A DNA stretch of 63,996 nucleotides, the filler included, from Anaerolineae bacterium (GTDB lineage Bacteria; Chloroflexota; Anaerolineae; B4-G1; DUEL01): NCBI GenBank assembly GCA_041082215.1. It is 6 parts of 6 records of this genome, joined end to end, with 100 filler letters (N's around TTAATTAATTAA, not from the genome) between each part and the next. Parts side by side here need not be neighbours in the genome. Positions count along the whole stretch, not along the records: positions 24,863 to 47,606 come from JBDOIF010000105.1; 5 more parts are not named here. One strand, given 5' to 3'. The position numbers were made by a program, and so were the translations under genes. Positions 13,224 to 47,706 of the stretch are shown one piece after another (position 1 is the stretch's first letter; each line of letters begins with the position of its first letter). The notes under the pieces were generated by a model that searched no databases, was not told the DNA's origin, and saw only the letters and a program-made list of their open reading frames with translations.

Positions 13224-14170
13224 CCCTCCCTCCGTCGCATCTCCCGCAGCGCCTGGACCCCGTACATCAGCCCGCCCATCAGCCCCGCCGCCGCCGAGAC
13301 GGCGTAGATCGAGAGGGACATCCCGGCAGCGGTGTTGCTGTCTATGCCAGCGGGGTTGAAGAGCGCCACCACGGTCCAATCGCGCACCCCCACACCGCCC
13401 ACCGAGATGGGGATCATCAGGCTGATGGAGATGAGGGGGGCTGTGATGAAGAAGTAGCCCAGGCTCAGGCCGATCCCCACCGCCCGCCCGCAGAGGAAGT
13501 TGATCAGGATGTTCATGAGATTGAAGACCAGCGAGATCCCCAGCGCCTGCCCCACCGCTCGCCAGCCGCAGCCAGTGATGGCGGCGTAGAGCCGCCCCAG
13601 GGGGCCGGAGCCGGCCAGCGAGAGCTTCTCCGGAAGCCAGCCGGTCGCCCGACGGAGCAGCCGCCCTTCCAGCAGCAACCCGCCAGCCAGCAGCCCGCCC
13701 CCCGCCACCCCCACCAGCAGCCACGTCAGCCAGGGGACCAGCAGCGAGGCGCTGAACGGCAGCGCAGCCAGACCCATCGCCATCAGCACCAGAAGGCCAG
13801 TCATACGGTCCACCAGCACCGTACCGACGGCGGCGGGGGTGGGGGTATCCTGGGTCAGCTCCAGCGCCCGTACCACGTCCCCGCCGAAGCCGGTGGGGAG
13901 GAAGCTGTTGAAAAAGGCCCCCACGAAGTAGAGATAGGCCAGCCGCCAGAAGGGAACCTGCAGGCCCAGAGCGCGCAGCAGGACCGCCCACCGTGCGGCG
14001 CGGATGACCAGACTGAGGAGGAAAAGGACAAAGGCGGCCAGGAGCAGCCGCAGGTCGGCGGCGCGGAGCACCGCCAGGGTCTGACTCAACCCGATCTTCC
14101 AGAGCAGGAAGCCCAGCGCGCCAGCACTGATCAGCACACGGGCCAGGTTCAGCCATTTCTTCCGGTTCAT
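13220..14170 (-). CDS. Flippase-like lysylphosphatidylglycerol synthase TM-domain (UPF0104) protein
   Basis: IRAARW, FFNSFLPTGFGGDVVR, VDRMTG, PISVGGVGVRD; ATG at 14170. Confidence 0.88.
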   Translation of the reverse strand: MNRKKWLNLARVLISAGALGFLLWKIGLSQTLAVLRAADLRLLLAAFVLFLLSLVIRAARWAVLLRALGLQVPFWRLAYLYFVGAFFNSFLPTGFGGDVVRALELTQDTPTPAAVGTVLVDRMTGLLVLMAMGLAALPFSASLLVPWLTWLLVGVAGGGLLAGGLLLEGRLLRRATGWLPEKLSLAGSGPLGRLYAAITGCGWRAVGQALGISLVFNLMNILINFLCGRAVGIGLSLGYFFITAPLISISLMIPISVGGVGVRDWTVVALFNPAGIDSNTAAGMSLSIYAVSAAAGLMGGLMYGVQALREMRRREG

Positions 14171-16464: not shown

Positions 16465-18521
16465 GGCGTCCTCACTTCAACAGGGGGCAACAACAGCCGG
16501 TCCGTCCCGTTCACAGGCAGACGGGGGCCGTCGGGCGCCCAGTACAGCCCTACCTGCAACGTGTAGGTTCCCGGCCCCAGATCGCCAGGCAGGTCCAGCA
16601 CGTGCTTCTGAACGATCACATCCCCCTGCATCCATCCGTGGGGAGGGCTTTCCAGGCCGTCATCCTGAACCCGCAGGCTGCCCTCGCCGTCCAGCAGATG
16701 GACAAAGACCTTCAACGCCTCCGCTGGAGGGGACTCCACCCGCCAGACAGTCAGAAGGACCAGACGACCGCCGGGGCGGGCGTCCTGTTCCACCCATTCT
16801 ACCCCCACCAGCGCCAGATGACCACCGAAGGAGGCCGGGATCGGGGCGGGGGTCCCATCCGGCAGCGTGGCCTCGACCCCGGACAGCCTCCTCTCGACCT
16901 CTGCCGCCTCTGGAAGGGCAAATTCAGAAAAGGGAGCCGCCCCCCACCCCACCTCCCGTCCCCCCCAGGCCAGCAGCCGCTGGCGCAGGTCGGCGTCGAA
17001 GGGGACCACCTCCGGCACGAGCAGCCGTCCGCCAGCCCCCGCCGGAACGACCAGCGTCTCGCGGGTGTCGCAGAGGCGGACGTGGCTCGTCTCCCCCCGC
17101 GCCGCCAGTTCGACCCCTGGCCCGTCCATCGTGTGCACCGAAAGCCCTGCCACCACCACCGGCACCTCCGACCCCAGCTCATCCACCCGATGCGCCGCAG
17201 CGGTGAGCGCCGTCTGGTAATCGAAGCGGACCACCTCGTCCCGGGGCCAGAGGAAGAAGTAGTCGCGGAGGGTGAAGGAAGCAAAAAGCAGGATGCAGAA
17301 TGCGGGAAGCAGGAGGCGAGTTGCAAGATGCAAGATGCGAGAGGCAAAATGAATCTGTATCCTGCCTCTTGCCTCCTCCATCCTCCCCCCCATCTCCGCA
17401 AGCGCGATGGCCGGGAAGGCAAAGACCACCACCAGCCCCAGGATGTCCCGGATCGAACTGGGAGCGACTGAGGTGACGACGCTGGGGACCAGGGAGCCGG
17501 CCAGCCAGATGAGCAGAAGGGCGTATCGGTGGTCCCGCCAGCGCCAGAGGGCGATCCCCACGCCGACGTAGAAGAGAAGGGCATTGAGCAGGTCGGTAAA
17601 GACCGGCCTTCCCGGCACGTTCTGCCGCGGCCAGGGATCGCCCCGGAAGGTGAACATCCCCAGGTTGGCCTTGAGGTTCTCCCACGCAAGGGAGGGGTCG
17701 CCTGCCAGGAGCCGATCCAGCGGTTCGCGGACCTCTGCCACACGGGTCTCGGCCCCTGGATGGGCGGCCAGCCAGAAAAGGAGCGGCGCGGCCACCGCCG
17801 CCGCGACGAAGGCCGCCAGCAGGAGATACCGCCACTGCCTCCGCAGGAGATCCCGGTGGAAAAGCGCCAGGTAGCCCACATAGGCGGCGAAGATGAAGGG
17901 GAGCACACGGGCGGCCATATAGGTGTAAAGGGAAAGCCCCAGAAAGAGTCCAGACGCCCCGTAGAGGCCGACCTTGTGTCGGCTCCTGTCCAACCCCCGG
18001 AAGAGGGCATACATCGCCAGGGCCGCCGTCAGCGGGAGCGCGATCGCCCGCAGTGCGACGCGGGCGTAGAAGAGGGGCCAGAACCCCACCGCCAGATAGG
18101 CCCCCGTCAGCAGCGCCACCCGCTGGCCGAACAACCGGCGCATCAGCGAGAGGGTCACCGCCAGCCCCAGCAGCCCCAGGGCAGCCGACGGATACCGTAG
18201 CCCCAGCCAGTGGTCCCCAAAGAGGGCCACCGTCGCCACCTGAAGGTAGTGGTAGAGCGGCTCGTGGCCGTAGGCAGCGGTGAAGTAGATGGCGTGATGG
18301 CCGCTCAGGATGTCCTGGGCGATCAGCCAGTGGGCCACCTCGTCGTGGGCCAGGCCCGGCGGCACCTCCCCCAGCGCCCAGAAGCGAAGCACGGCGGCCA
18401 GGAGCAGGATGAGGACGGAGGAGGACAACCACCGTAGAGTAGCAGGACAACTGCTCACAGTTGTCCTACCCTCCCCTCCGCGCTCTCTGTGTCTCTGTGG
18501 TTGCAAAGCTGTTCCGCTCAT
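16461..18521 (-). CDS. GT-C membrane glycosyltransferase, paralog 4
   Basis: PPGLAHDE, YGHEPLY, GLSLYTYMAAR, C-terminal KVFVHLLD domain. Confidence 0.88.
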   Translation of the reverse strand: MSGTALQPQRHRERGGEGRTTVSSCPATLRWLSSSVLILLLAAVLRFWALGEVPPGLAHDEVAHWLIAQDILSGHHAIYFTAAYGHEPLYHYLQVATVALFGDHWLGLRYPSAALGLLGLAVTLSLMRRLFGQRVALLTGAYLAVGFWPLFYARVALRAIALPLTAALAMYALFRGLDRSRHKVGLYGASGLFLGLSLYTYMAARVLPFIFAAYVGYLALFHRDLLRRQWRYLLLAAFVAAAVAAPLLFWLAAHPGAETRVAEVREPLDRLLAGDPSLAWENLKANLGMFTFRGDPWPRQNVPGRPVFTDLLNALLFYVGVGIALWRWRDHRYALLLIWLAGSLVPSVVTSVAPSSIRDILGLVVVFAFPAIALAEMGGRMEEARGRIQIHFASRILHLATRLLLPAFCILLFASFTLRDYFFLWPRDEVVRFDYQTALTAAAHRVDELGSEVPVVVAGLSVHTMDGPGVELAARGETSHVRLCDTRETLVVPAGAGGRLLVPEVVPFDADLRQRLLAWGGREVGWGAAPFSEFALPEAAEVERRLSGVEATLPDGTPAPIPASFGGHLALVGVEWVEQDARPGGRLVLLTVWRVESPPAEALKVFVHLLDGEGSLRVQDDGLESPPHGWMQGDVIVQKHVLDLPGDLGPGTYTLQVGLYWAPDGPRLPVNGTDRLLLPPVEVRTP
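17281..17387. repeat. Degenerate 7-mer array (GCAAGAT-like x10) with short inverted partner array inside CDS
   Basis: gcaaaaa gcaggat gcagaat gcgggaa gcaggag gcgagtt gcaagat gcaagat gcgagag gcaaaat, then atcctgc ctcttgc ctcctcc atcctcc. Confidence 0.75.
17961..17989. repeat. GTAG-type REP palindrome, in frame (RSRHKVGLY)
   Basis: gtagaggccgaccttgtgtcggctcctgt, decayed copy of 22056-22088. Confidence 0.75.
18427..18503. repeat. CACAGAG-family palindrome with nested GTAG REP at the 5' end of paralog 4
   Basis: caaccaccgtagag ... caggacaactgctcacagttgtcctac ... ctctctgtgtctctgtggttg. Confidence 0.65.
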
Positions 18522-18531
18522 CGGCCATCAC

Positions 18532-20531
18532 CTACGGCAGGATGTACCGGTCCCCAACAGGCCGACCCCCCTCATCAACAACCGCCCATCGCTCCCCCGT
18601 CATCGGGTCGTACAGGCCGACCTCCAGCCGGTATGGGCCGGCAGGCGCATCCGACGGCAGGGAGAAGCGGTGCAACTGCACGAACCGGTCCCCGGGCCGG
18701 AGCGTGGTGGGATCCACCCACAGCCCATCGTCCACCGCCACGGGGGTCTCTCCGGCGTAAAGGTGGGCAAAGACCGAAAGCCTTGGGCCGGCGTAAACCC
18801 CCGGCGGGGGCGGGTTGGCCACCACCGGCATCGGCGGCAGGTCGAGCGTCCCTATCACCTCCCACGCCAGCCACGCCCGCACTTCTCCATCCCCCTCCTC
18901 CAGCCGCCCGCCCGCCAGCGCCAGCCCGTTGCCGAAGGTAGCCACAGGGCCATCGGCAGGGACCGGGAGTTCGCTGGGGACGGGGTACAGGCGCAGTTCA
19001 CCCCTCTCCCAGAGGACCGGCCCCCTCAGCAGAGCCTCCAGCCGCGGATCGGGGTCGGGGAACGGGGTCAACAGGAGCAACGGACCCGGGCCGGACGGCA
19101 CCAGCAGCGCCCGCTCCGGGTTGAACAGCCGCACTCGCACATCCTCCCGCCGCAGGTCGTCGTCCAGCGCCAGTCGGTCCCACGGCCCCAGCAGTGCGCT
19201 TCCCACCGCCACATCCACAATCTCGGGGTGCGCGTCCAGATACCGCGCCACCTCCCGATAATCGGCCCGGTAGAGGAAGCGGACCATCCCCCGTTCCGGC
19301 CAGGTGACGAAGTAATCGCGGAGGTCGCGGGCGGAAGAGAAAAGAAACAGGAGGCAGAAAGCAGCAAGCAGGGGGCCTCTGACGTTTGACGCCTGACGCC
19401 TGACGCCTGACGCCTGACGCCTGACGCCTGACGCCTGACGCCCGCCATCCACTCCAGAGGTAGCGCCGCCAGCAGGTACGCTGCCGGCTGAGCCAGGATG
19501 GTGTGGCCCAGGCTGGCCGGGGGCAGGGTGAGAAGGGCCGGGCTGATGCCAGCGACCAGCCACAGGAGCAGGAAGCCATACTCGGGCCGACGCCACCGCC
19601 AGAGGGCCACCCCCAGCCCGAGGAAGAAGAGCACTGCACCGGTCGGGCCAAAAACCGGGCGACCGGGCAGGTTGTAGAGCCATTCGGGATCGCCAGTGGC
19701 GTGGAACATCCCCAGCGTCGTCAGCGCGTTCTCCACCAGCGGTCGGGGGTTGCCGGCCCGCAGCTCCCGCAGCGGCACAGAAAGCTCGGCAATACGGGCG
19801 TCCGCCCCGATCCCCCGCGCCGCCGCCTCGCTCCGACCCTGAGCGATGGCGACCCACAGGGGCAGGGTCACCAGCAGCGCCACCACCAGGGCCAGCAGCA
19901 GCGGCCGCCACCGGCGACGGAACTGCTCCCGGTGGAACAGGGCCAGGTAGAGGCCGAAGGCCACGAGGATCAGGGGGAGAAGCCGGGAGGCGGTGTAGGT
20001 GTACAGCGCCGCCGCCAGCAGCAGCCCCCAGACGAGCGGCCGCAGCCAGGCCGGGCGGGGCCGATTCGACCACCAGAGGTAGAAGAGCGCCAGGGTGGAC
20101 GGGAGCGTCATCGAGTGCCGCAGGCCAAACCGGCTGTACATCAGCGACCAGAAGCTGGTCGCCACAAGCGCCGCCGCCCCGAACCCCGCCGCCCGTCCGA
20201 ACAGTCGCCGGCCCAGCAAGCAGGTCAGTGGCACGGTAAGGGCGCCGCAGACGATGGAGAGGAGGTGTCCCCCCAGCGGATTCATCCCCACCAGCAGCAA
20301 CACCCCGGCGTGGAGAGTGTGATAGAGCGGCTCATGGCCCGAGGCGCCGGTAAAGTAGAGGGTGGGATGCCCGGCCAGGACCTCTCCGCTGAGGGCGTGG
20401 ATATTGATCAGCTCGTCGTCCCGCCAGCCGGGGGGGACATCCGCTGGCTGCCAGACCCGCAGTCCCCAGCCGATCAGCACCAGCAGGAGCGCAAGGCCCC
20501 ACTCCCAGAGGGAAAGGCGGCTCCTTCTCAC
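18532..20531 (-). pseudogene. GT-C membrane glycosyltransferase, paralog 3, frameshifted at a heptamer repeat tract (possibly phase-variable)
   Basis: GTG 20531 (PPGWRDDE, SGHEPLY, ALYTYTASR) reads in one frame to the tract; RDYFVTWP...SVFAHL...VGLYD continues in another frame to TAG at 18532; total 2000 nt, not a multiple of 3. Confidence 0.85.
19387..19442. repeat. Perfect simple sequence repeat (TGACGCC)8
   Basis: Eight exact units plus a degenerate tgacgtt at 19380-19386. Confidence 0.97.
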
Positions 20532-22549
20532 GGCGCTACCACCTCCACCGGGCAAAGCAGCACCCGATCGTCTACCGATGCCCCCTCTGCCAGCACAGAT
20601 AGCCGCATGCCATCCGCCTCCCGATAGGCCCCCACCTGAAGGTGATACCAGCCCGGTGGAGTCGCTTCGGGGACGGCGAACCGATGCACCTGCGCCACTA
20701 CATCCCCCGGATGCCAGTTCCAGGACGGCGCGTCCAGCCGGTCGGATTGGGCCAGCACGTGGCTCTCGCCGTCCAGCAGGTGGGCAAACAGCACCAACCC
20801 TTCCCGGGGTCCATCCACCCGCCAGAAGCTCACCAGCGCCACCTCCCCCCCCGGTTCGACGACGGGGGTCAGCAGCCGGTAGCCGACCAGCTCGACCCCC
20901 CCCTCCAGCGCGACCGGCAACTCCAGCGGGTGATAGACGAAATCGGCGGGCAGCATCTCCCCCTCGAACCATCCTGCCGGACCCTGCGCCCCCGCCAGGG
21001 CCTCACCGAGCGCTGCCGCCACATCCCACTGCAACACCGCCACCTCCGTCACCAGATCGCCGGGCCGCAGGGGAATCGGCGGCAGCGGACGGGCGTGCGG
21101 CGCAACCAGCGCCTCCAGCGCCGGGTCCAGCGGCACGGCGGAGGGGACGAGCAGCCGCGCCTCTCCGCTGGCGGGGAAGACCAGCGCCCCCCGCCCATCG
21201 AACCAGCGCAGGTCCGGGTCGGCCCGCCCCCGCAGCACCTCCATCGCCGAGGGATCGTGCGGCTGCCGGGGGTAAAAGGTGGAGATGGCAACCAGCCCTT
21301 CCGGCCCGGTCCCCTCCAGATAGTCCGCCTCCGCCGCCAGGTGGACGTGGTAGGCCACCCGCACGTCCCGGTGGTTCGCCCAGGTGAAGAAATAGGTATG
21401 CAACGTCTCTGCCGCGACCCAGGCGGCAAGGGTGGTGAAGACAACCGCCAGCGCCACAGGTGCGATGCGCCCCCCTCTGACCGACCGATGGAGCTCGACG
21501 AAGGGGAGGACGCAGAGGCCAAAGACGGCCGGTTGGGCGGCGATGGCCCGCAGCGACGAACTCTCCAGCCCGGTCACCAGCGCCGGAGCGACCCCCACCA
21601 GCAGCCACAGGAGGAGCAGGCGCGGCCCCGGCTGCCCCGGGCGGGCCAGCGCCAGGAGCACCCCCAGATAGAAGAGAACGGCCAGCGGTAAGAGAAGGAG
21701 GGGCTGGCCGGACAGGTTGTACATCCAGTGCACGTCCCCCCGGTGGCTGAACATCAGCGCCGCCTCGCCCATCCGTCGCAGGAGAAGGGAGGGATCGCCC
21801 GACCAGGCTGCCCGGAGCGGCGCGGCCAGCTCCGCCACCCGCACCTCCAGCTCCGGATGGCGGGCCAGGTAGATGAGCAGCGGCGCGGCGACTGCCGTCA
21901 TCACCGTCAGCATCGTCAGCGTCCCCCGCCAGCCTGCCCGGAAACGGGGGCGGTCGGCCCAGGCCAGGCTCAGCCAGAACAGCACCGGCACAAGCCAGAC
22001 CACGCGGGCGGGCATATACGTGTAGAACCCCAACCCCAACAACACCCCCGCCCCCACGTAGGGGCCGACCTTGTGTCGGCCCCTACGTCCATACAGCCCC
22101 CGCCAGAACAAAACCATCGCCGCGGTGAAAAGGGCCGGCATCGTGATCGAGCGCAGAATCTCCCGGCTGGTGGAAAGGGGCCAGAAGGAGACCGCCATCA
22201 GGAGCGCCGCACCCAACGCCCCTGCCTCCCCCAGCGGACCGCGCAGCGCCGCATACGTGAGCGCCACCAGCGCCAGCCCCCACACCGCCGACGAGAGCCG
22301 CCCCGTCGTCTCCCGCATCCCCAGCAATCCCACCAGCGGCGCAGTCACATAATCGTAGAACGGCTCCCGGCCATAGCTGCTGGTGAGGTAGATGGGACGC
22401 GCACCCTCCCGGATGCGGCGTGCGTCCTGCAGATGGGCCGCCTCGTCGTGGGTCACCCCCGGTGGAACCTCGCCCAGCCGTGCCAGGCGGAAAGCCGCCG
22501 CGACCAGGAGCACCCCAACCAGCGAGAAGAGCGCCGCCCTCCGGCTCAC
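20528..22549 (-). CDS. GT-C membrane glycosyltransferase, paralog 2
   Basis: PPGVTHDE, YGREPFY, GFYTYMPAR, C-terminal LFAHLLD domain. Confidence 0.88.
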   Translation of the reverse strand: MSRRAALFSLVGVLLVAAAFRLARLGEVPPGVTHDEAAHLQDARRIREGARPIYLTSSYGREPFYDYVTAPLVGLLGMRETTGRLSSAVWGLALVALTYAALRGPLGEAGALGAALLMAVSFWPLSTSREILRSITMPALFTAAMVLFWRGLYGRRGRHKVGPYVGAGVLLGLGFYTYMPARVVWLVPVLFWLSLAWADRPRFRAGWRGTLTMLTVMTAVAAPLLIYLARHPELEVRVAELAAPLRAAWSGDPSLLLRRMGEAALMFSHRGDVHWMYNLSGQPLLLLPLAVLFYLGVLLALARPGQPGPRLLLLWLLVGVAPALVTGLESSSLRAIAAQPAVFGLCVLPFVELHRSVRGGRIAPVALAVVFTTLAAWVAAETLHTYFFTWANHRDVRVAYHVHLAAEADYLEGTGPEGLVAISTFYPRQPHDPSAMEVLRGRADPDLRWFDGRGALVFPASGEARLLVPSAVPLDPALEALVAPHARPLPPIPLRPGDLVTEVAVLQWDVAAALGEALAGAQGPAGWFEGEMLPADFVYHPLELPVALEGGVELVGYRLLTPVVEPGGEVALVSFWRVDGPREGLVLFAHLLDGESHVLAQSDRLDAPSWNWHPGDVVAQVHRFAVPEATPPGWYHLQVGAYREADGMRLSVLAEGASVDDRVLLCPVEVVAP
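22056..22088. repeat. GTAG-type REP palindrome, in frame (RRGRHKVGPY)
   Basis: Perfect 14-bp arms acgtaggggccgac / gtcggcccctacgt, 5-nt loop. Confidence 0.85.
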
Positions 22550-24621
22550 GGCTCCACCACCTCCACGGGTGTCAGCAGGAGCCGGCTCTGAACTACCCCC
22601 GGCCCCACCTCAACCAGCAGCCGGACGGACGGGTCCCGCCGCAGGTAGGCGCCGACCTCCGGCACATAGAGGCCGGGGGGAAGATCGCCCGGCAGGGAGA
22701 AGCGATGGACCTGCAGGAAAGCCTCCCCGGCCTGCCAGTTCCAGGAGGGCACGTCCAGCCGGTCCATCTGGGCCACCACCGATCCGGCGGGGTCCAGCAG
22801 GTGGGTGAAGAGCACCACTTCCTCCGGCGCCGGCCCCCCCGTCTCCCACAGCGTCACCACCTCCACCACCCCGCCGGTGGGAACCCGGCGGGTTCGGAGG
22901 TCGTACCCCAGGAGCCGCAGAGACTCGCCGAACGCGACCGGCAGGTCGAGCGGCTCACATCCCGTCAGCGGCTCCTCTGGCGGGAAGGAAGCAGCCGGAC
23001 TCCAGCAGACCGGTTCCCCCATCATCGCAGCCTGTACCTGCGCCCGCGCTGCCGGGCCGTTCCACTGGTAGACCCCAATGGCGGGATCGAAGTCGTCGGG
23101 CCGCAGCTCGATCCGGTCTATGAGGACAGCGTGCGCTTCCAGGAGTGGCTCCAGCGCCGGGTCCGGCGGGGTGACGGCCGGGAGTAGCAGCCGCCCGGGC
23201 TCGGCAGGGAGGACCAGGCCGCCGCGACCGTCGAACCAGCGGAGGGAGATTCCCTTGTTTTGCAGCGTGGCGGTCACCACCCGGGGGTCGTGGAACTGGC
23301 CGGGAAAGAGGGTGGAGATAGCGACCGGCCCCTCGTCCGGGTGCTCATCCGGATACGCCGCCACTGCCACCAGGTCCACATGGCAATGGACCCGCACATC
23401 CCGGTTGTTGGCCCAGGTGACGAAATAGGTGTAGGCCGCCTCGACGCCGGTCGCCAGGAGGAGCAGCGCCGCCAGCCCGTAAACAGGTCTCCGCAGGGAG
23501 GGCCGGACCCGGCGGGCGAGGGCGCCGAACGCCAGCGCGGGGAAGAGGAAGACAACTGGTTGGGCCAGGATCGCCCGCAGGTTGACCGCCTCGATGCCGG
23601 TGGCGAGGGCAGGGAAGACCCCCACGCCGAGCCAGAGCAGGGAGAGGGCGGAGGCGGGCTCTCGCCAGCGGGCCAGGGCAAGCAGCAATCCGATGACGAA
23701 GAGCGCGCCGCCCACCGGATCAAAGATGGGGCGGCCCGGTATGTTGTAGGGGATGAAAGTATCCCCATAGATGAAGAACATCCGCGCCGCAGAGCGCATC
23801 TGTGCCCACAGCGGCCCGGGGTCGCCCGCTGCAAGGGCCCGCAGGGGCTCATCCAGCATCCCTACCCGGATGTTCAGTTCCGGGTGGGCATGCAGGTAGA
23901 GGTAAAGGGGGGCAGCCACGACGGCCGCCGTCGCCAGCACAAGCCCCATACGGCCCAACGCCCGCCACCCGCCGCGCCGGGTCACCAGCAGGTAGAAGCC
24001 CCAGAGGATGAAGACCCCCGGCGCCACACGGGCGGCCAGGTAGGTGTATTGAGCGATGCCCAGGAACAGCCCGCTCAGGAAGGCCGTCCACCATCGGGGC
24101 CGCCCGGGGGGGAAAAGGGAGCGGTGCAGCCAGTAGAGGGAGAGGGAAAAGAACAGCGGCAGCGTCACTGCCCGCAGCCCCATCCGGCTGGTAGTGAAGC
24201 CCCAAAATGAGAGGGCCAGCCAGCCGGTGGCGAGCAGCGCCTCGGGAAGATCGAAGAGCCGGCGCACCGTGGTGAAAGCCGCAGCCAGGAGCAGCATCCC
24301 CCAGAAGGCGGTGGTGAGCCGCATCGCGAAGGGAGTTGGCCCCAGCAGCGCCATCATCCCGGCCACCGAGTAGGGGTAAAGGGGTTCCTTGCCCTGGGCA
24401 ACGGGGAAGAAGAGGGGACGGATCCCCGCAAGCACCCCCGCCCCGTCGTAAACGTTGTTGGCCTCGTCGTGGGTCAGCCCGGGAGGCACCTCGCTCAGAA
24501 AGAGGAAGCGCAGCGCAGCCCCCGCCAGCAGAATGGAGAGGATCAGGGCCCATGCGGCAGGGGGGAGAGCTGACCGGGGCTGTATATGTCCCGCAACCGG
24601 AGTTCGACGGTCTGTAGCCAT
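22546..24621 (-). CDS. GT-C membrane glycosyltransferase, paralog 1 (first gene of operon)
   Basis: PPGLTHDE, QGKEPLY, QYTYLAAR, C-terminal LFTHLLD domain; ATG 24621 chosen because it lies just downstream of the promoter. Confidence 0.85.
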   Translation of the reverse strand: MATDRRTPVAGHIQPRSALPPAAWALILSILLAGAALRFLFLSEVPPGLTHDEANNVYDGAGVLAGIRPLFFPVAQGKEPLYPYSVAGMMALLGPTPFAMRLTTAFWGMLLLAAAFTTVRRLFDLPEALLATGWLALSFWGFTTSRMGLRAVTLPLFFSLSLYWLHRSLFPPGRPRWWTAFLSGLFLGIAQYTYLAARVAPGVFILWGFYLLVTRRGGWRALGRMGLVLATAAVVAAPLYLYLHAHPELNIRVGMLDEPLRALAAGDPGPLWAQMRSAARMFFIYGDTFIPYNIPGRPIFDPVGGALFVIGLLLALARWREPASALSLLWLGVGVFPALATGIEAVNLRAILAQPVVFLFPALAFGALARRVRPSLRRPVYGLAALLLLATGVEAAYTYFVTWANNRDVRVHCHVDLVAVAAYPDEHPDEGPVAISTLFPGQFHDPRVVTATLQNKGISLRWFDGRGGLVLPAEPGRLLLPAVTPPDPALEPLLEAHAVLIDRIELRPDDFDPAIGVYQWNGPAARAQVQAAMMGEPVCWSPAASFPPEEPLTGCEPLDLPVAFGESLRLLGYDLRTRRVPTGGVVEVVTLWETGGPAPEEVVLFTHLLDPAGSVVAQMDRLDVPSWNWQAGEAFLQVHRFSLPGDLPPGLYVPEVGAYLRRDPSVRLLVEVGPGVVQSRLLLTPVEVVEP

Positions 24622-24631
24622 AAACGGTTCC

Positions 24632-24660
24632 ATCATACCGCAACCGGTGGGGATTGACAA
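24632..24660 (-). promoter_or_regulatory. Sigma70-type promoter of the GT-C operon
   Basis: TTGTCA-17 nt-TATGAT on minus strand, 10 nt before ATG. Confidence 0.6.
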
Positions 24661-24762: not shown

Positions 24763-24862
24763 NNNNNNNNNNNNNNNNNNNNNNNNNNNNNNNNNNNNNN
24801 NNNNNNTTAATTAATTAANNNNNNNNNNNNNNNNNNNNNNNNNNNNNNNNNNNNNNNNNNNN
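24763..24862. other. Artificial contig spacer
   Basis: N-run with TTAATTAATTAA six-frame stop linker. Confidence 0.98.
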
Positions 24863-25009
24863 CGCTGAAGGTGCGAGGGGAGGTGATCGGGGTGCTGGAC
24901 GTGCAGTCGGAGGCGGCGGCGGCGTTCAGCGAAGAGGATGTGGCGGTGTTGCAGACGATGGCCGACCAGGTGGCGCTGGCCATCGAAAACGCCCGACTGC
25001 TGGAGGAGA
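24863..25009 (+). repeat. 147-bp exact repeat (GAF C-terminal segment), copy 1
   Basis: Identical to 47707-47853. Confidence 0.95.
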
Positions 25010-28000
25010 GCCAGCGGTCGCTGCAGGAGCTCCAGGCAGCCTATGGCGAGTACGTCCGCGCTACCTGGCGGGGCGTGGAAAAGCTGCCCGCCTTCGAGTA
25101 CGACCGGGTGGAAGTACGGCCCGCCGAGCTGGTGCCCGATCCACTTGTCGAGAAGGCGCTGAGCCAGAGGGACGTCGTGACGGTGGACGATCCTCAGAAC
25201 GGCCGCTCAGCGCTGGTCGCTCCGCTCCGGCTGCACGACCAGGTGATCGGTGCCCTGGCCCTGGAGGAAAGAGGCCCATCCCGCCCCTGGACCGATGAAG
25301 AAATCGAGCTGCTGAGAGCGGTGAGCGAGCAGGTGGCGCTGGCGCTGGAAAACGCCCGCCTCTTTGAAGAAACCCGCCTCCATGCAGAGGAACTGGCCAT
25401 GTTGAACGAATTGAGCCAGTCCCTCACGGCCCGCCTCAACCTGGAAGAGGTTCTGATCGAGGTCTACCAGGGTGCCTCCCGCCTGCTGGATACGACCAAC
25501 TTCTATATCGCCCTGTATGATGTGAATACCGGAACGGTCTCGTTCCCTGTGGCGATTGAGGATGGGCAGCCTGTACAGTGGCGGCCCCGCCCGGCAGGAA
25601 ATGGCCTCACGGAGTATATCATCCGCAGCCGGAAGCCGCTGCTCATCACAGAAAACGTGCCCGAAAAGCTGAGGGAGCTGGGAGTGGATATGATCGGGCG
25701 GGCAGCCCTCTCCTGGATGGGAGTGCCGCTGATGCTCGGCGACCGGGTGCTGGGCGTGATGGCCGCCCAGAGCTACACCACTGCCCACGCCTACGACGAG
25801 CATGCGCTCAACCTGATGACGGCTATCGCCAGCCAGGCAGCCATCGCCATTCAGAATGCCAATCTCTTTGAGGAGACGCAGGCTGCCCTGGCGGAGACCG
25901 AGGCGCTGTACGGGGCCATCGCCGAGCTGAACGCCGCTCAGACCTATCCGGACATCCTCGCCGTCCTCCGCCGCCACACGCTCCTCGGTCAGGCCGACCG
26001 CAACCTGACCATTGACCTGTTCGACCGACCCTGGACGGCGGATCGGCTACCGGAGTGGGTCGAGGTGCAGGCGCGATGGATCACACCCCCCTCCGGCGGG
26101 CTCCCCTCGCGGTATGCGATACGGGAATTCCCCTCCGCTGCCGCCATCCTGCGGCCAGATCGCCCGACCCTTATCACCGACGTGGAATCCGACCCGCGCC
26201 TCGGGGAGAGGATGCGCTCCCTGTTCCTGCAGCAATTCCAGGCCCGATGCACGATCTTCGTGCCTCTGGTGGTGGGTGGACAGTGGATCGGCTACATCAA
26301 CGGGATTTACAGTGAGCCGTTCTCTTTTCCGGAGGAGGGGATACGACGGTTGATGAGCCTGGCCAGCCAGGCCGCCATCGCCGTTCAGTCCATCCGGCGG
26401 CTGGAGGAGACCCAGCGGCGTGCAACCCAACTGGCCGCCGCCGCCGAGGTAGCCCGCGATGCTACCGCCATCCTCGACGTGGGCCAGTTGCTGGATGAGA
26501 CGGTCCAGCTGATCTCCGAGCAGTTCGGCTTCTACCACGCCGGCGTCTTCCTGCTGGACGAACAGGGGGAGTATGCGGTGCTCCAGGCAGCCTCCTCTGA
26601 GGGCGGGAAGCGGATGCTGGCGCGGGGCCACCGGCTCAAGGTCGGTGAGGCCGGCATCGTCGGCTACGTGGCGAGCACTGGAGAACCCCGCATCGCCCTG
26701 GATGTGGGCGCGGATGCCGTTCACCTGGCCAATCCTGACCTGCCCGACACCCGCTCAGAGCTGGCCCTCCCCCTGGTCAGCCGTGGGAGGATCATCGGCG
26801 TGCTGGACGTGCAGTCCAACCGACAGGCCGCCTTCTCCGAGGAGGACGTGGCCGTCCTGCGGACGATGGCCGACCAGTTGGCTACCGCCATCGAGAACGC
26901 CCGCCTCTTCGCCGAAACCGAGCGCTCCCTGACGGAGACCCGGGAGCTGTTCCAGGCCAGCCAGGCCATCGGCGCGGCCACCAGCTCCTCCGAGGTGGGA
27001 CAGGCTCTGATGCGCTACGTCGCCACGACAGACCTGGATGTGGGAAGGCTGATCCTCTACGAGTTTATGGAAGACAGGCCGACGGAGATCCTGCTGGCGG
27101 AGGAATGGTCAGCGGATGGGCAGGCCCACTTCGGCGTCGGCGTCCGTATCCCGATGACCGACTTCGCCCTCAGCCAGCTTTTGAACCTGCCCGAGGAGGT
27201 CGTTGTCGTCGAAGATATCCACGCCGATGAGCGGCTGGACGGACAGACCCTTTCCCTTCTGGAAGTGGCCCGGCTCCGTTCCGTCGCCCTTATCCCTCTG
27301 ATAGTGGGCCGCCGCCAGATCGGGGGGCTGCTGGTAGGGAAACGCCAGCCATCCCTCTATCCGGAGCGGCTGATCCGCAACCTCCAGACCCTCTGCGGTC
27401 AGGCGGCTATCGCCATCGAGAACCTGCGTCTGCTGGAGGAGACCCGCCGAAGGGCCCGGGAGCTGGAGGCGATCAACGAGCTGGGGCGGACCATCTCCTC
27501 CGTCCTGGACCCGGACGTGCTGATCCGCCAGATTGTGGACACGACGAAGGAGCGGTTCGGCCACTTCTTTGTGAGCGTGCTCCTTGTGGACGGAGACAGG
27601 CTGGCCTTCTGGGACGGAAGCACCATCGGCGATTCCGGGCTTCGCCTGGAACCACGCAGCATCTCCTTCAGCCTGGAGGAGCCTGGCCTGGCGACGGAGG
27701 CGGTCCGCACCGCGCAGCCTGTCCTGGTCAACGACGTGTTGAGCGATCCCCGCTACAGATCGGTCCCCGAACTGGAGGCCGTCCGCTCCGAGCTGGATGT
27801 CCCCATCGAGGTCAAGGGGCAGGTCATCGGTGTGTTGAACGTGCAGAGCGAGCGGCTCCACGCCTATCGCCAGACCGACGTGCTGCTCCTGCAGTCCCTG
27901 GCGGCCCAGGCAGGCGTGGCCATCGAGAACGCCCGGCTGTTCGCCGAGACGGAGGCGGAGGCCCGGCGGCGTGCTTTGATCAACGAGGTGCTCCAGGCCG

Positions 28001-29985
28001 CCGCCACAACGCTGGAACCTGAAGGGCTGCTGCACAGGGCCGGCGAGACCATCGCCCGGAACCTGGCCCTCCCCTCCGCGATCTTCCTCTGGGAGCCGGG
28101 GGTGGGAGCTTTCCGCCCCGTCGCGGTCCACGCAGCCGATGGCTCGGATGTCCCGGCAGAGGGGGAGATGTGGATTACGGAGAAGGCCGATCCCTTCATG
28201 TTCCGGGCCGTTGAGGAGCGCGGCCTCCAGCTCTTCGAGGCGACCGCCCTGGCCCGCCGTCTCCGGGCCGGTTCCGGCCTCTATGTGCCCCTCTTCTCCC
28301 GCGACCGGGTGTTCGGCGTGCTGGGGCTGCTGAACCCCGAAGGCAGGCCCCCGTTCCCACCGGATGTCCTCAGCTTTGCCGACATCATCGGCGCCAACCT
28401 GAGCGTCGTGCTGGACAACGCCTACCTCTACCAGGAGGCCGTGGATACGGCGGAGCGCCTGCAGGAGGTGGACCGGCTGAAGTCCCAGTTCCTGGCCAAC
28501 ATGTCCCACGAGCTGCGTACCCCGCTCAACTCCATCATCGGCTTCTCCCGCGTCATCCTGAAGGGAATTGACGGGCCGATCACCGACCAGCAGCGGCAGG
28601 ACCTGGAGGCAATCTACAACAGCGGACAGCACCTGCTGGGCCTGATCAACGATATCCTGGACATCTCCAAGATCGAGGCCGGCAAGATGGAGCTCAACTT
28701 CCAGTCGGTGGACCTGCAGGAGATCATCCGGGGGGTGATGTCCACCGCTGTCGCCCTGGTCAAGGATAAGCCGATTGACCTGCAGCAGTCGGTCCCGGAG
28801 GACCTGCCCACCATCATAGCTGACGAGCGCCGGATCCGTCAGGTCCTCCTGAATCTGGTCTCCAACGCCGCCAAGTTCACCGACGAGGGCTTCATCCGCG
28901 TCGAGGTCTCCTTCGATGACCAGTTCGTGACCGTCTCGGTGGCCGATAGCGGCATCGGCATCCCTGAAGAGAAGGTCTCCAAGATCTTCGAGGCCTTCAC
29001 CCAGGTGGACGCCTCTCCGTCCCGGAAGTACGGCGGCACCGGCCTGGGGCTGACCATCAGCAAGTCCTTCGTCGAACTCCACGGGGGACGGATCTGGGTG
29101 GAAAGCGAGATCGGCAAAGGTTCTACCTTCACCTTCACCCTCCCCATCCAGGGACCGCCCAGCGCAAGGGCGGAGGAGGAGGTGGCGGCAGCAGGGGCCC
29201 AGGAGGAACCGGCGGAGACAGGATGGAGGCAGGTGCTCTGCGTGGACGATGACCGCGGGGTCATTACCCTCTTCCGTCGCTACCTGAGCAAGCAGGGGTA
29301 CCAGGTGATCGGCCTGACCGATGCCTCGCGGACGGTGGAGGAAGCGAAGCGGATCCGGCCGTATGCCATCACCCTGGATGTGATGATGCCAGGGAAGGAC
29401 GGCTGGCAGGTGATCCAGGAGCTGAAGGCCGACCCGGAGACGCGGGATATCCCGGTGATCATGTGTACGATCGTCGGCGAGAGGGGCCGTGGGTTGAGCC
29501 TGGGCGCAGCGGACTACCTGGTCAAGCCGATCCTGGAGCAGGACCTGCTGGCTGCGCTGGACCGGCTGGACCGGGAGGAGGGCCGCCATCGGATTCTGGT
29601 GGTGGACGACCAGGTGGAGGACCGCAACCTCCTGCGCCGGATCGTCGAAAGCCAGGAGGGGTACGAGGTCATCGAAGCAGGCAGCGGTCAGGAAGCCATT
29701 GCGCTGGTCCATCGGGTCCGGCCCCACATCATCATCCTCGACCTTCTGATGCCCGAAGTGGACGGGTTTGCCGTCCTGGAGGCCCTGAAGGCGGATGAGA
29801 CCACCCGCCTGATCCCCATCGTGGTCGTCACCGCCAAGGAGCTGACGGAGGAAGACCGCCTGCTTCTCAACCACCACATCGAGGCCCTGATCCAGAAGGG
29901 GGTGCTGGATCAGGAGGAGTTGCTGGAGGACGTGGCGGCCGCCCTGAGGAAGCTGGGGCGCAGGTCGGGCGCTGATGGCCGATAG
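24863..29985 (+). CDS. Multi-GAF hybrid sensor histidine kinase with two receiver domains (5' truncated by gap)
   Basis: About 8 GAF-like repeats (PL..G..IG, AIENARL), FLANMSHELRTPLN, NLVSNAAKF, DSGIGI, GGTGLGL, two REC domains (VDDD..LDVMMP; VDDQ..LDLLMP). Confidence 0.95.
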
Positions 29986-30007
29986 ACGAAAGGTGAAGGG
30001 AAACGGT

Positions 30008-31663
30008 ATGAACTCCCATCGGCAACTGACTCCGCCGAGATGGAAGTGCGCCCGTTGCGGCTACGAGGAGGAGTTTGATAGGCCTCTGGAACGGTGTCCG
30101 CACTGCAACGGGGACTGGCTGGATGTGGTCTACGACTACGAGGGGGTCGCCCGGATCTGGCCGGAGGCCCTCCGTGGGCGCCCCTGTGATATGTGGCGGT
30201 ACAGGGAACTGCTGCCGTTGCGGGACGATGCCTACCGGGTCACAATGGGGGAAGGGGGGACGCCTCTCCTGCATTCCACCAACCTGGGGATGATGCTCAG
30301 CGCCCCCCACATCTATATCAAAGACGAGCGCCAGGGGCCGACCGGTTCGTTTAAGGACCGCCAGGCCTCCCTTTCCATTTCTGTTATGAAAGAGCTGGGC
30401 ATCACCGAAGCGGTGGTCGCCTCTACGGGCAACGTCGCGATCTCCTATTCCGCCTATTCCGCCCTGGCCGGCATCAAGATGTGGGCCTTCCTCACCAGTC
30501 TGGTCCCGCCGGAGAAGATGCGGGAGGTCGCTATCTACGGCACCGAGGTCATCAAGGTCACCGGGACCTATGATCAGACCAAACAGGTGGCGGCGGAGTT
30601 CGCCCGACGGCACGGGCTGTATGTGGACCGGGGGATCCGCTCCATCGCCGCCCGGGAGAGCATGAAGACGGTGGCCTTCGAGATCGCCGAGCAGCTTCCC
30701 CTCTTCCTGGGGCCGGGCCCTACACCCTGGCGGGCGCCGGACTGGTATGTGCAGTCGGTCAGCGGGGGGATGGGGCCGGTGGGAGTATGGAAAGGATTCC
30801 AGGAGCTGATGAAGATGGGGCTGGTGGACCGGATGCCCCGGCTGGCCTGCATCCAGGCGGAAGGCTGCGCGCCGATGGTCCGCTCCTTCGAAAAAGGTCT
30901 GGACGAAGCGGAGCCGGTCCTGCGGCCCCGCACCCGCGTCATCACCGTCGCCACCGGCAACCCCGGCCCTGCCTATACCTTCCTGGCCCGCGTCATCCGG
31001 GAGCACGGCGGGGCCTTCGAGGCGGTCAGCGATGAGGAGACCTTCCGGGCGATGCACGTGATGGCAAAGCTGGACGGCATCTCGATGGAGCCGGCCGCCG
31101 CCCTGGCCTTCGCCGGCCTCTTCCAGTTGATGAGCAAAGGGGTGATCGGCCGGGACGAGGTGGTGGTGGTCAACTGCTCCGGCCACACCTTCCCGGTGGA
31201 AAAACACCTCCTGGGGGATGACTGGGCGCGGACGGTGGAAGCCCCGGCGATGGAGGAAGGGTTGCTCGGTTCGCTGGAGCAACTGGACCGACGGGTGCGA
31301 CGCATCGCCATCCTGGAAGATGACCCCAGCGCCGTCCGCCTCCTGCGACGTATCCTCCAGGCCCGGGGGGATTACCAGATCTTCGAGGCCTACGACGGCC
31401 GGTCCGGCGTGGAATTGATCCGACGGGAGCGACCCGATGTGGTCCTGCTGGACCTGATGATGCCGGAGATGGATGGGTTTGGCGTCCTCGACGCTTTGCG
31501 CGGCGATGAGCAACTGGCGGGTATCCCCGTCATCGTCGTCACCGCCAAGGAACTGACTCCGAGTGAGCGGATGCGGCTGAGCGGTCAGATCCGTATGCTT
31601 CTGCAAAAAGGGGCCTTCACCGATGAGGAGCTTTTGCAGGAGGTGCTGGACGCGCTGGAGTGA
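30008..31663 (+). CDS. Threonine-synthase-like PLP enzyme fused to C-terminal receiver domain
   Basis: CxxC..CxxC, GEGGTPL, GPTGSFKDR, ASTGN, SGGMG, EPAAA; then ILEDD..LLDLMMP..VTAK; alternative start 29975. Confidence 0.9.
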   Translation: MNSHRQLTPPRWKCARCGYEEEFDRPLERCPHCNGDWLDVVYDYEGVARIWPEALRGRPCDMWRYRELLPLRDDAYRVTMGEGGTPLLHSTNLGMMLSAPHIYIKDERQGPTGSFKDRQASLSISVMKELGITEAVVASTGNVAISYSAYSALAGIKMWAFLTSLVPPEKMREVAIYGTEVIKVTGTYDQTKQVAAEFARRHGLYVDRGIRSIAARESMKTVAFEIAEQLPLFLGPGPTPWRAPDWYVQSVSGGMGPVGVWKGFQELMKMGLVDRMPRLACIQAEGCAPMVRSFEKGLDEAEPVLRPRTRVITVATGNPGPAYTFLARVIREHGGAFEAVSDEETFRAMHVMAKLDGISMEPAAALAFAGLFQLMSKGVIGRDEVVVVNCSGHTFPVEKHLLGDDWARTVEAPAMEEGLLGSLEQLDRRVRRIAILEDDPSAVRLLRRILQARGDYQIFEAYDGRSGVELIRRERPDVVLLDLMMPEMDGFGVLDALRGDEQLAGIPVIVVTAKELTPSERMRLSGQIRMLLQKGAFTDEELLQEVLDALE

Positions 31664-31672
31664 GGGGGGAAT

Positions 31673-32953
31673 ATGGACCAGAGAGGGCCTGTGCGTATTC
31701 TGTATGTCGAGGATGATCCGGCCAGTGCTGCCCTGGTGCGACGGATACTGGAGCCGGAAGGGTTCGATGTCGTCGTAGTCGCCGACGGGGTAACGGCGCT
31801 GGAAAGCGTTGCTCGTGTCCGCCCTGCCCTGATCCTGATGGACATCAACATCGCCGGAATGGACGGCTATGAGGTGACCACCCGACTCCGGTCTATGGAG
31901 GAGATGCGGGGGGTGCCGATCGTGGCCGTCACCGCTGCCACGCTGAAGGGAGATCGAGAACGGGCACTCATCGCAGGCTGCGATGGCTACATCCCCAAAC
32001 CCATTGATGTGGACCGCTTCCCTGAGCAGGTGTGGGCCTTCCTGGGCGGATTGCGGGAACAGGTGGAATCCCCAGAGGAGAAGGTGCGGTACCTGGCGGA
32101 ATACACCGGCCGGCTGGTCCAGCATCTTGAGGAAAAGGTGCGGGACCTTCAGAAGGCCCACGCCGAACTCCAGCGTATTGATAAGATGAAGACCGACTTC
32201 GTCATCCTGGCGGGCCACGAGCTTCGGACCCCCCTCACGGCTATCTACGGCTACACTCAAATCCTCCTTTCCAACCCCGACATCCCTGGCTCGGCCGATG
32301 AGGTCGGCAGCCCCCGCTTCATCCTGCAGAAAATGGCCGAGGCGACCAAGCGGTTGAGCCAGGTCGTGGAGGACATCCTTAACGTCTCTCTGATTGACGC
32401 CAATGAGCTGGACCTGGCGATGGGGCCGGTGTTGCTGGATCCTCTGGTGCGCAGTGTGGTGCGCAATATCACCGGCCTCGCGCCCGACCGGCAGCTCACC
32501 TTCCAGGTCGAACTGGAAGGACTGCCGATGATCGTGGGGGATTCGCAGCGGCTCTATCAGGCGTTGTGGAACGTGATCAGCAACGCGGCCAAATACACGC
32601 CGGACGGCGGGAGGATCCGGATCGCTGGCCGGGTGGTGGAGGAGACCGTCCACCTGATGATCCAGGATACAGGGATCGGGATTGACCCCGGGGAGCAGGA
32701 GCAGATCTTCGATCGCTTTTACGTGCTGGAGAACACGGCCCTCCACCGCTCCAGCAAGACCGCCTTTAAGGGAGGAGGGCTGGGGCTGGGGCTGACCGTG
32801 GCCAAAGGGCTGATCGAGGCTCACGGTGGGCGGATTTGGGTGGAGAGCGAGGGCCGGGACGAGGAACGGCTACCTGGCAGCACGTTTCACATTCTGTTGC
32901 CGCTCCCCGAGCAGGATGCTCAGGATCAGGATCGCGCCGCCGGTCCACTGTAG
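31673..32953 (+). CDS. Receiver--histidine kinase hybrid
   Basis: YVEDD..LMDINI..KP; GHELRTPL, NVISNAAKY, DTGIGI, GLGLGL. Confidence 0.93.
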   Translation: MDQRGPVRILYVEDDPASAALVRRILEPEGFDVVVVADGVTALESVARVRPALILMDINIAGMDGYEVTTRLRSMEEMRGVPIVAVTAATLKGDRERALIAGCDGYIPKPIDVDRFPEQVWAFLGGLREQVESPEEKVRYLAEYTGRLVQHLEEKVRDLQKAHAELQRIDKMKTDFVILAGHELRTPLTAIYGYTQILLSNPDIPGSADEVGSPRFILQKMAEATKRLSQVVEDILNVSLIDANELDLAMGPVLLDPLVRSVVRNITGLAPDRQLTFQVELEGLPMIVGDSQRLYQALWNVISNAAKYTPDGGRIRIAGRVVEETVHLMIQDTGIGIDPGEQEQIFDRFYVLENTALHRSSKTAFKGGGLGLGLTVAKGLIEAHGGRIWVESEGRDEERLPGSTFHILLPLPEQDAQDQDRAAGPL

Positions 32954-33841
32954 GAGGGAGAGCCGCTCGCCGAGGAGCAGGAAGGCCAGCCCCAGAGAGA
33001 CCAGCAACTCCAGCAGGCTGATCAGCGCCGCTTCGATCCCGCCGAGCCGTTGAAGGCCGGCGAACATCAGGACCCGGGAGAGGGCGGTGGTGACCCCCAG
33101 CGCGATGATGGTGTTCCAGCCCGGTAGGGGGATCGGCTCGATCGTCCCTCCCTGAAGCATGCGGGCAACCCCCACCGTCGCGGCCATCGCTGTAAGAATG
33201 TAGGGGGTAGCGGTCCGGGAGGGGACGTCCGCCAGGACCCACTGGCCCAGGACCAGGTGCCAGCCGTAGGTGGCCGCCGAGGCGATCATCAGCATCACCC
33301 CCAGCCAGTCTGGCCTGCCTACCCCCGCTCCGGTGAGGAGATAGACCCCCCCCATCGCCAGCCCCATCCGCACCAGCGTCAGCAGCCGGATCGGCTGTCC
33401 GGAGGCGGTGAGGAAGAGGACAACCCACAGCAAGTAAAGGGTGTTGAGGAAGGAAGCGAGGGAGGCTTCCAGCCGCGAGAGGCCAGAGTAGTAGAGAAGG
33501 GAACCGATCCCATTCACCGCACCGATGGCGATGCAACCGACCAGTTCCTGCCACGTGATCCGCAGCCAGCCCCGCCAGAGAAGCCCGTACCCGAACCAGA
33601 GCAGCGTTGCCGCCACGATCGTGCGCACGGTCGCTACAGTGAAAGGGGTGACCCCATGGGCGTAGGCCAGCTTGCCCAGGATGGGCGCCCAGCCGAGGAA
33701 GAAACTGGCCAGGGCGGTGTTGCGAACCCCGCGCGTCCGCTCCCGATCTGCCCACAGCCTCCGGATACGTCCTGAGTCTGGCAATTCCCTCTTCCTGTGC
33801 TGCATCGGGCCTGTGGCTACGATGTTATCCGCATCCGGCAA
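32870..33841 (-). CDS. DMT/EamA family transporter
   Basis: About 10 TM helices in two repeats, LLGERLS..QWTG motif; start uncertain. Confidence 0.85.
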   Translation of the reverse strand: MPDADNIVATGPMQHRKRELPDSGRIRRLWADRERTRGVRNTALASFFLGWAPILGKLAYAHGVTPFTVATVRTIVAATLLWFGYGLLWRGWLRITWQELVGCIAIGAVNGIGSLLYYSGLSRLEASLASFLNTLYLLWVVLFLTASGQPIRLLTLVRMGLAMGGVYLLTGAGVGRPDWLGVMLMIASAATYGWHLVLGQWVLADVPSRTATPYILTAMAATVGVARMLQGGTIEPIPLPGWNTIIALGVTTALSRVLMFAGLQRLGGIEAALISLLELLVSLGLAFLLLGERLSLLQWTGGAILILSILLGERQQNVKRAAR

Positions 33842-41597: not shown

Positions 41598-41629
41598 CGA
41601 GTGTTGCGTGGCGGAGAGGAGATGGACCG

Positions 41630-47606: not shown

Positions 47607-47706
47607 NNNNNNNNNNNNNNNNNNNNNNNNNNNNNNNNNNNNNNNNNNNNTTAATTAATTAANNNNNNNNNNNNNNNNNNNNNNNNNNNNNNNNNNNNNN
47701 NNNNNN
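47607..47706. other. Artificial contig spacer
   Basis: N-run with TTAATTAATTAA linker. Confidence 0.98.

Follow-up and report, generated by a model that had tools for sequence, protein, structure and literature searches.

A threonine synthase-like PLP enzyme fused to a response regulator receiver domain beside sensor kinases in Anaerolineae

Introduction

The methylesterase CheB, the diguanylate cyclases PleD and WspR, and RpfG are response regulators with enzymatic outputs. Here we describe a gene that may encode a further protein of this kind, found in a 63,996-nucleotide stretch of DNA (the window) from a metagenome-assembled genome (MAG) of an Anaerolineae bacterium (GenBank assembly GCA_041082215.1), in which a pyridoxal 5'-phosphate (PLP)-dependent enzyme of the threonine synthase (ThrC) type is followed by a C-terminal receiver (REC) domain. 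Like the enzymatic response regulators, the protein combines a full phospho-acceptor pocket with a fused enzyme, has a likely kinase encoded next to it, and is restricted to a narrow phyletic range; unlike them, its enzyme is a PLP-dependent amino-acid enzyme and its receiver lies C-terminal to that enzyme.

Regulatory domains are found on several fold-type II PLP enzymes, including biosynthetic threonine deaminase (an ACT-like domain), cystathionine beta-synthase (a pair of CBS domains) and plant threonine synthase (activated by S-adenosylmethionine). The fusion protein resembles these enzymes in joining a catalytic core to a terminal domain predicted to set its activity, a theme to which the ThrC-LeuA_dimer and ThrC-PadR proteins described below also belong. 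The appended domains of threonine deaminase and its like bind small molecules, whereas that of the fusion protein is a predicted phosphorylation switch tied to a sensor kinase. CheV, which consists of CheW and a C-terminal receiver, shares with the fusion the placement of the receiver C-terminal to the domain thought to be modulated; in CheV, however, that domain is a scaffold rather than an enzyme, and the two proteins have no sequence relationship beyond the receiver. As in the zinc-ribbon threonine synthases (NF006050/PRK08197), the fusion protein has a four-cysteine ribbon, the fold-type II PLP fold, a Lys within SFK, an S-x-G-N loop, a G-rich cofactor loop and an E-x-x-K-T motif. It departs from them in lacking the Arg of the canonical 'PYR-LEG-KKT', in scoring under the family cut-off, in belonging to a separate clade and in its C-terminal receiver, and it has invariants of its own (KDER, DRQ, Q-x-x-SGG-x-GP and GHT).

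Receivers attached to standard metabolic enzymes are known and are narrowly distributed, as set out in section 14 of one survey (Galperin et al. 2018, PMC5847659). Our searches of the full-text literature, judged by titles and the openings of abstracts, found no description of a PLP- or ThrC-type response regulator output, although few subscription journals were covered and a brief mention is possible. This result is consistent with an earlier, preliminary description of the locus, made from the DNA sequence, which had called PLP enzymes an unusual response regulator output. Thus fusion of a receiver to a metabolic enzyme is known, and what is apparently new is the PLP/ThrC-type partner.

Results

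Domain architecture and residue conservation

The fusion gene is on contig C16 of the MAG (window positions 24863-47606) and has the following parts, all on the plus strand:

29975-31663, plus strand: fusion gene, 562 amino acids, comprising a zinc ribbon, a ThrC-like PLP domain, a linker and a receiver
30047-30106, plus strand: four-cysteine zinc ribbon (C25, C28, C41, C44), with all four cysteines kept in 50 of 50 fused homologues
30239-31180, plus strand: fold-type II PLP domain of ThrC type, with the codon of the Schiff-base Lys127 at 30353-30355
31181-31303, plus strand: linker with a conserved EEGLL..LE.L stretch right before the receiver, modelled with low confidence
31304-31639, plus strand: receiver domain, with the codon of Asp493 at 31451-31453 and with D449/D450, T523 and K545 present

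Pfam assigns residues 89-402 of the 562-residue open reading frame (ORF) to PALP (207 bits) and residues 444-555 to Response_reg (68.2 bits against a cut-off of 30.2), together with a weak rubredoxin-like zinc ribbon at residues 23-45, a feature that the genome's true thrC product also has. The annotated ORF overlaps the upstream kinase gene by 11 nt; starting instead from Met12 leaves a gap of 22 nt. Because the homologues begin at Met12, the ATG at 30008 is the likelier true start.

The catalytic Lys that the preliminary description had recognised in GSFKDR is borne out by these matches and by alignment. In the alignment, K127 of the TGSFKDR motif pairs with Lys61, which forms the Schiff base in the Thermus thermophilus enzyme (1uim); K127, G152 and G346 are unchanged in 113 of 113 aligned relatives, and K127, S150, G152 and N153 are invariant among 50 fused homologues. 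The PLP part of the fusion thus looks catalytically intact, with the residues of the cofactor and alpha-carboxylate sites kept. The receiver pocket, likewise described earlier as intact, is complete (E448-D449-D450, D493, T523 and K545); D493 never varies across the 50 fused homologues, D449 and K545 each reach at least 90% conservation, and the T523 column holds T or S. An AlphaFold model built from a 113-sequence alignment has a mean predicted local distance difference test (pLDDT) score of 89.3, above 95 in the PLP domain, and a predicted template modelling score (pTM) of 0.79. Foldseek matches the model to the threonine synthases 2zsj, 6nmx, 2d1f and 1v7c with template modelling (TM) scores of 0.83-0.84, and to the cysteate synthase CapA2 (9k3c) with a TM score of 0.75 (all target-normalised).

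Relationship to threonine synthases

The preliminary description had called the enzyme threonine synthase-like, and this holds for its fold and family. That the protein is an ordinary threonine synthase is, in contrast, improbable from its scores and its residues. We took as reference the cut-offs of the NCBIfam equivalog models NF006050 (303 bits) and TIGR00260 (167.1 bits) and of the cysteate synthase model TIGR03844 (324.9 bits). The fusion protein lies under every threonine synthase equivalog cut-off, with 271.1 bits on NF006050 and 151.1 bits on TIGR00260, and it lies far under the cut-offs of the other four models. Two of three further fused homologues that were scanned are also under all of the equivalog cut-offs. 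In the sister clade none of 11 proteins reaches the NF006050 cut-off and 10 of the 11 are under that of TIGR00260 as well, which one (P0140) passes with 196 bits.

The stand-alone threonine synthase gene noted earlier on the same contig is, by comparison, unambiguous:

46193-47356, plus strand, contig C16: genuine threonine synthase, of the PRK08197 type with a zinc ribbon, 597.3 bits on NF006050 against the cut-off of 303

The fusion protein is 38% identical to the product of this gene. Since a bona fide thrC sits on the same contig, the fusion is an extra paralogue beside the true thrC. A canonical thrC above the cut-off co-occurs with the fusion in the genome of the window (G000) and in four of five other genomes checked. 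The 3.5-Mb genome has two more ThrC-like paralogues, at C5:14985-16244 (L083, 279.5 bits on NF006050) and C131:2080-3060 (L084, 238.1 bits), bringing its ThrC-family genes to four; both score under the NF006050 cut-off, and L083 just passes TIGR00260.

The T. thermophilus residues T88, N154, S155, R160 and N188, which we take to be those that hold the substrate phosphate, map to V154, R219, G220, A226 and G264 of the fusion protein. At the R160 column, in a loop whose alignment is not fully secure, the fused clade has A in 18 rows, S in 8 and G in 4 (Arg in 0 of 30), whereas Arg stands there in 33 of the 67 ThrC-like rows outside the clade, and the column that follows holds R (15 rows), K (7), V (5) and I (3) in the fused clade. 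Other positions have become fixed: R119 and Q130 occur in every one of the 30 fused-clade rows and in none of the 67 others, S263 in 30 of 30 as against 2 of 67, and D218 in 29 of 30, while H404-T405 stands where a G-L-K-D context is usual. The E228/K231/T232 motif is conserved in the fused clade. We read this remodelled and fixed distal pocket as pointing to a substrate, or a mode of binding it, that is conserved within the clade and different from that of classical threonine synthase. Taken together, these comparisons suggest that the enzyme domain is threonine synthase-like but probably not an ordinary threonine synthase.

Distribution and origin of the fusion

In a search of 5.8 billion proteins, the 120 best clusters (query included) all contain both PF00291 and PF00072, at 74-87% identity; their database names are 'pyridoxal-phosphate dependent enzyme' or 'threonine synthase' and they derive from Anaerolineae/Chloroflexi MAGs. 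Clustering at 50% identity leaves six full-length fused clusters, of which two have two receivers. The ESM Atlas contributed 12 clusters with both domains, for which the commonest phylum is Chloroflexota. In an even sample of 401 Chloroflexota genomes, the window's own included, the fusion is found in 40 (E ≤ 1e-90), with all 49 matches starting no later than query residue 25 and reaching at least residue 557, and one Anaerolineae family has it in 24 of 24 sampled genomes. Nine of the 40 genomes (G019, G067, G139, G166, G175, G193, G298, G330 and G378) carry two fused paralogues, one of which is 57-60% and the other 47-51% identical to the window protein; the two subtypes correspond to a form linked to an EamA gene and a form that precedes stand-alone receivers or thrC.

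PLP-domain sequences (108 rows) were placed in a maximum-likelihood tree whose bootstrap was still short of settling completely; 25 fused and five partial rows form one clade there, with ultrafast bootstrap (UFBoot) support of 100 and Shimodaira-Hasegawa-like approximate likelihood ratio test (SH-aLRT) support of 99. The nearest relatives of this clade are a few stand-alone ThrC-like proteins, and it is well apart from the PRK08197 clade that holds the window's thrC. By this tree, the fusion arose once. A receiver-less form within the fused clade is not evidenced: the five rows without a receiver (P0130, P0132, P0133, P0135 and P0143) are partial or end at the linker. A neighbourhood scan for the nearest stand-alone relatives (P0134, P0138 and P0139) brought back almost exclusively fused Chloroflexota genes, at 40-48% identity.

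Variants were also encountered. Fusions with two receivers occur at loci L002, L020 and L089 and in P0125 and P0126. Contigs assigned in binning to MAGs of Gemmata, Blastopirellula, Methanosarcinales and Lewinellaceae (L119, L150, L158 and L160) also carry fused-family genes, which may reflect mis-binning or transfer; L119, a 3080-nt contig in the Gemmata bin, is the sole locus with 1900 nt past the PLP domain and no receiver match. Elsewhere in the same ThrC branch, a ThrC domain is followed by a C-terminal LeuA_dimer (the allosteric domain of LeuA) in five proteins of 611-620 amino acids (P0179, P0197, P0202, P0204 and P0247), which are named threonine synthase, come from candidate division NC10, belong to a 114-member cluster and form one clade (UFBoot 100, SH-aLRT 99), and by a C-terminal PadR DNA-binding domain in P0243 (499 amino acids).

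Kinases, receivers and the conserved neighbourhood

The genes around the fusion gene in the window are as follows:

24871-29985, plus strand: hybrid histidine kinase upstream of the fusion, its 5' end lost at the contig start, with GAF (7 stretches), HisKA, HATPase, REC1 and REC2 by Pfam
28480-28683, plus strand: HisKA of the upstream kinase
28822-29151, plus strand: HATPase of the upstream kinase
29233-29559, plus strand: REC1 of the upstream kinase
29602-29940, plus strand: REC2 of the upstream kinase
31673-32953, plus strand: second kinase, 9 nt 3' of the fusion gene, with REC at 31697-32026, HisKA at 32192-32401 and HATPase at 32537-32908
32870-33841, minus strand: EamA/DMT transporter gene, convergent, its 3' end sharing 84 nt (32870-32953) with the second kinase gene

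The ORF of the upstream kinase is open to the first base of C16 (24863) and starts inside a GAF domain; because the contig begins there, the 5' part of the gene, and with it the sensor end of the kinase, is absent. The fused receiver is most similar to the second receiver of this kinase (46% identity, 108 bits) and is less so to the other two receivers of the cluster (38-39% identity, 57-63 bits), in agreement with the resemblance to the kinase's last receiver reported in the preliminary description. The same relationship extends beyond the window. In a tree of 65 REC domains from 20 loci, one clade (SH-aLRT 96) unites 20 fused receivers, three second receivers of two-receiver fusions and all eight terminal receivers of upstream hybrid kinases; outside it fall the kinases' first receivers, receivers that stand alone and those at the N-termini of REC-kinases. 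The earlier term 'phosphorelay' operon proved too strong, as a His-Asp-His-Asp chain is not supported: no histidine phosphotransfer (HPt) domain was detected at E ≤ 0.001 in the fusion protein or the two kinases (the first lacking its 5' part), nor among the annotated neighbours at the window and 15 related loci.

For the neighbourhood survey we tallied 118 loci, of which four were duplicates, leaving 114 unique loci and 111 with a PLP-domain match of at least 300 bits (L021, L034 and L035 were left out). A receiver is present in 107 of the 111; in three of the four that lack it, the sequence stops no more than 200 nt past the PLP domain. The preliminary description had held that a kinase linkage lacking conservation would count against its reading; a HisKA/HATPase core lies upstream, on the same strand and within 1.5 kb, at 90 of the 96 loci with at least 1500 nt of upstream DNA. 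Pfam annotation of the window and the 15 related loci indicated that all 13 annotated upstream kinases carry GAF, and that nine of the 13, or the ORF right before them, have a dCache, HAMP or 4HB membrane sensor. An amino-acid-binding dCache sensor in these kinases was considered and dropped, since the motif as we take it to be (R-x-W-[YF] after an aromatic residue) was found in full in none of nine upstream kinases of relatives and in part in one. At two loci (L023:4634-5434 and L032:5021-5806) a gene for a ParA/MinD-like ATPase (AAA_31) stands between a dCache-HAMP-GAF sensor ORF and a PAS-GAF-kinase ORF, and stand-alone receivers are encoded 3' of the fusion at six (L002, L005, L009, L011, L020 and L090).

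Among the 92 loci with enough downstream DNA, the fusion gene is followed by EamA at 57, by a REC-kinase at 15, by a true thrC at six and by none of these at 20. The window's EamA is the genome's only match to the EamA of locus L022 (39% identity, 161 bits), and on that ground we regard it as the counterpart of the EamA that in relatives follows on the strand of the fusion, even though it is inverted here. That this neighbour is so frequent indirectly favours, to some degree, a small product or substrate resembling an amino acid.

Discussion

The reading that we favour is that the gene encodes a response regulator with a PLP-enzyme output, which catalyses a reaction other than, or different from, threonine synthesis and whose product or substrate is carried by EamA; we put its probability at about one half. 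In the mechanism we infer, control would run from receiver to enzyme. The adjacent GAF-containing histidine kinase, which in relatives frequently has an extracytoplasmic sensor (dCache or HAMP), would autophosphorylate on some cue and pass the phosphoryl group to Asp493, and the kinase's terminal receiver, being of the same subfamily, would probably compete for the phosphoryl group or drain it. Phosphorylation of Asp493 would then act through the conserved linker to change how active the PLP domain is. The substrate would be an amino acid, bound unlike O-phosphohomoserine in classical threonine synthase, on which the enzyme would carry out an elimination or replacement at the beta or gamma position, and the product or the substrate would move across the membrane via the co-localised EamA transporter. 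The downstream REC-kinase, or elsewhere a stand-alone receiver, could form a second branch of the same module.

Several observations weigh against this reading. Model confidence is low in the linker (residues 405-430) and in the receiver's final 40 residues (pLDDT 49-70), and a C-terminal receiver is the less common order among response regulators. The second batch of 80 loci in the neighbourhood tally was gathered by means of two peptide patterns and is a non-random sample. At 35 of the 92 loci EamA is missing downstream, and the window's copy runs on the other strand; on the only transporter model matched, one for carboxylate/amino acid/amine transporters, EamA scores 50-62 bits against a cut-off of 230. 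The remaining points concern the chemistry. The genome's true thrC likewise differs from the T. thermophilus enzyme at T88 and N188, so that, of these residues, only the loss of R160 is specific to the clade; the invariant R119 could take over phosphate binding from R160, which would leave O-phosphohomoserine as the substrate; one fused homologue (L005) marginally passes TIGR00260 (170.1 against 167.1 bits); and the true thrC directly downstream at six of 92 loci (confirmed by Pfam and NCBIfam for L011, L014 and L089) would also fit a role in threonine synthesis.

The last two of these points also speak for a rival view, in which the protein would be a regulated isozyme of threonine synthase, converting O-phosphohomoserine to threonine and phosphate with its flux switched by a two-component signal. 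In its favour, the best family match of the fusion is to threonine synthase (271 bits on NF006050), solved structures of that enzyme share its fold, and conservation extends to the Lys, the S-T-G-N loop and the E228/K231/T232 motif; in addition, some sources label the protein threonine synthase, and one genome (G223) has no other gene above the NF006050 cut-off. We nevertheless regard such an isozyme as unlikely, given that all four fused proteins scanned are under the NF006050 cut-off and three of them under every equivalog cut-off, that the distal Arg is absent from its column in all rows of the fused clade, which has invariants of its own instead, that the tree separates this clade from PRK08197 thrC, and that a normal thrC is retained in the window's genome and most of the others checked. 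Equivalence to an already described ThrC-derived family is highly improbable. A cysteate synthase would be in line with the CapA2 match to the model noted above and with a score of 109.6 bits on TIGR03844, which is, however, far from the cut-off of 324.9. For MetM, the MetO-thiocarboxylate-dependent homocysteine synthase, the comparison was by gene neighbourhood, and a sulfur-carrier-like gene was not seen among the Pfam-annotated neighbours at the window and the 15 related loci.

The direction of control could also be reversed, with the PLP domain as the input: binding or turnover of a metabolite would set the phosphate exchange of the receiver, and the protein would act as a checkpoint or phosphate sink in a branched kinase-receiver network. 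The C-terminal position of the receiver, as in hybrid kinases, the subfamily that it shares with the kinases' own terminal receivers, the abundance of further receivers in these clusters (stand-alone at six loci, on a 3' REC-kinase at 15 of 92) and the two-receiver fusions would all suit such an arrangement. Against this, the invariance of K127 and the cofactor loop argues for turnover and not binding alone, a metabolite product would be in keeping with the conserved EamA neighbour, and neither an HPt domain nor a further acceptor that could read out a sink was found in the three proteins of the cluster. We therefore think an input role quite unlikely, and prefer a receiver-controlled enzymatic output.

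Of the classes of response regulator, the one in which a receiver is fused to a metabolic enzyme is the least understood, and its members place metabolism, rather than transcription, under direct signal control. The fused clade, derived from ThrC and with a remodelled substrate pocket, is a candidate for a new PLP reaction, and the database label 'threonine synthase' could mislead pathway reconstruction. Because no sampled genome of one Anaerolineae family lacks the fusion, and because its neighbourhood is fixed, the fusion probably has a real physiological role in this abundant but poorly cultured group. More speculatively, and we give this idea little credence, the kinase, the fusion and EamA might make up a small-molecule circuit of filamentous Chloroflexota, in which phosphorylation would start the production of a modified or non-proteinogenic amino acid, EamA would export it as a cue between cells, and the dCache/GAF kinase may sense it again in an autoinducer loop.

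Other features of the window

The window consists of several contigs of the source MAG (174 contigs, 3.53 Mb, 96% complete) chained by N spacers, and its first 24,762 positions are contig C15. The joints are:

24763-24862, no strand: spacer between two MAG contigs, consisting of two 44-N runs with 12 letters between them
47607-47706, no strand: N spacer, contig joint
53007-53106, no strand: N spacer, contig joint
56932-57031, no strand: N spacer, contig joint
62882-62981, no strand: N spacer, contig joint

The contigs that start at 24863 and 47707 both begin within a GAF domain, and repeats of GAF-coding sequence seem to be where the assembly breaks. A single RNA dataset matched the genome (word share 0.09), and three raw-read runs yielded no reads. 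RNA contig pieces of 124-299 nt, with 0-1 differences, match positions 28000-28123, 29036-29207, 29421-29585 and 32852-33150, which is too thin a coverage to speak to expression or co-transcription.

The genes beyond the EamA gene, at higher coordinates, have unrelated housekeeping functions (among them PlsY and an M28 peptidase), and at 40296-43057 a gene for a LarA-type lactate racemase is followed on the same strand by one for an FAD-linked oxidase. On C15, eight successive large genes on the minus strand (7127-24660; products of 550-1151 amino acids) all match PMT_2, a family of GT-C membrane glycosyltransferases, and this tandem array sits in a strongly AT-skewed stretch (0.24-0.30).

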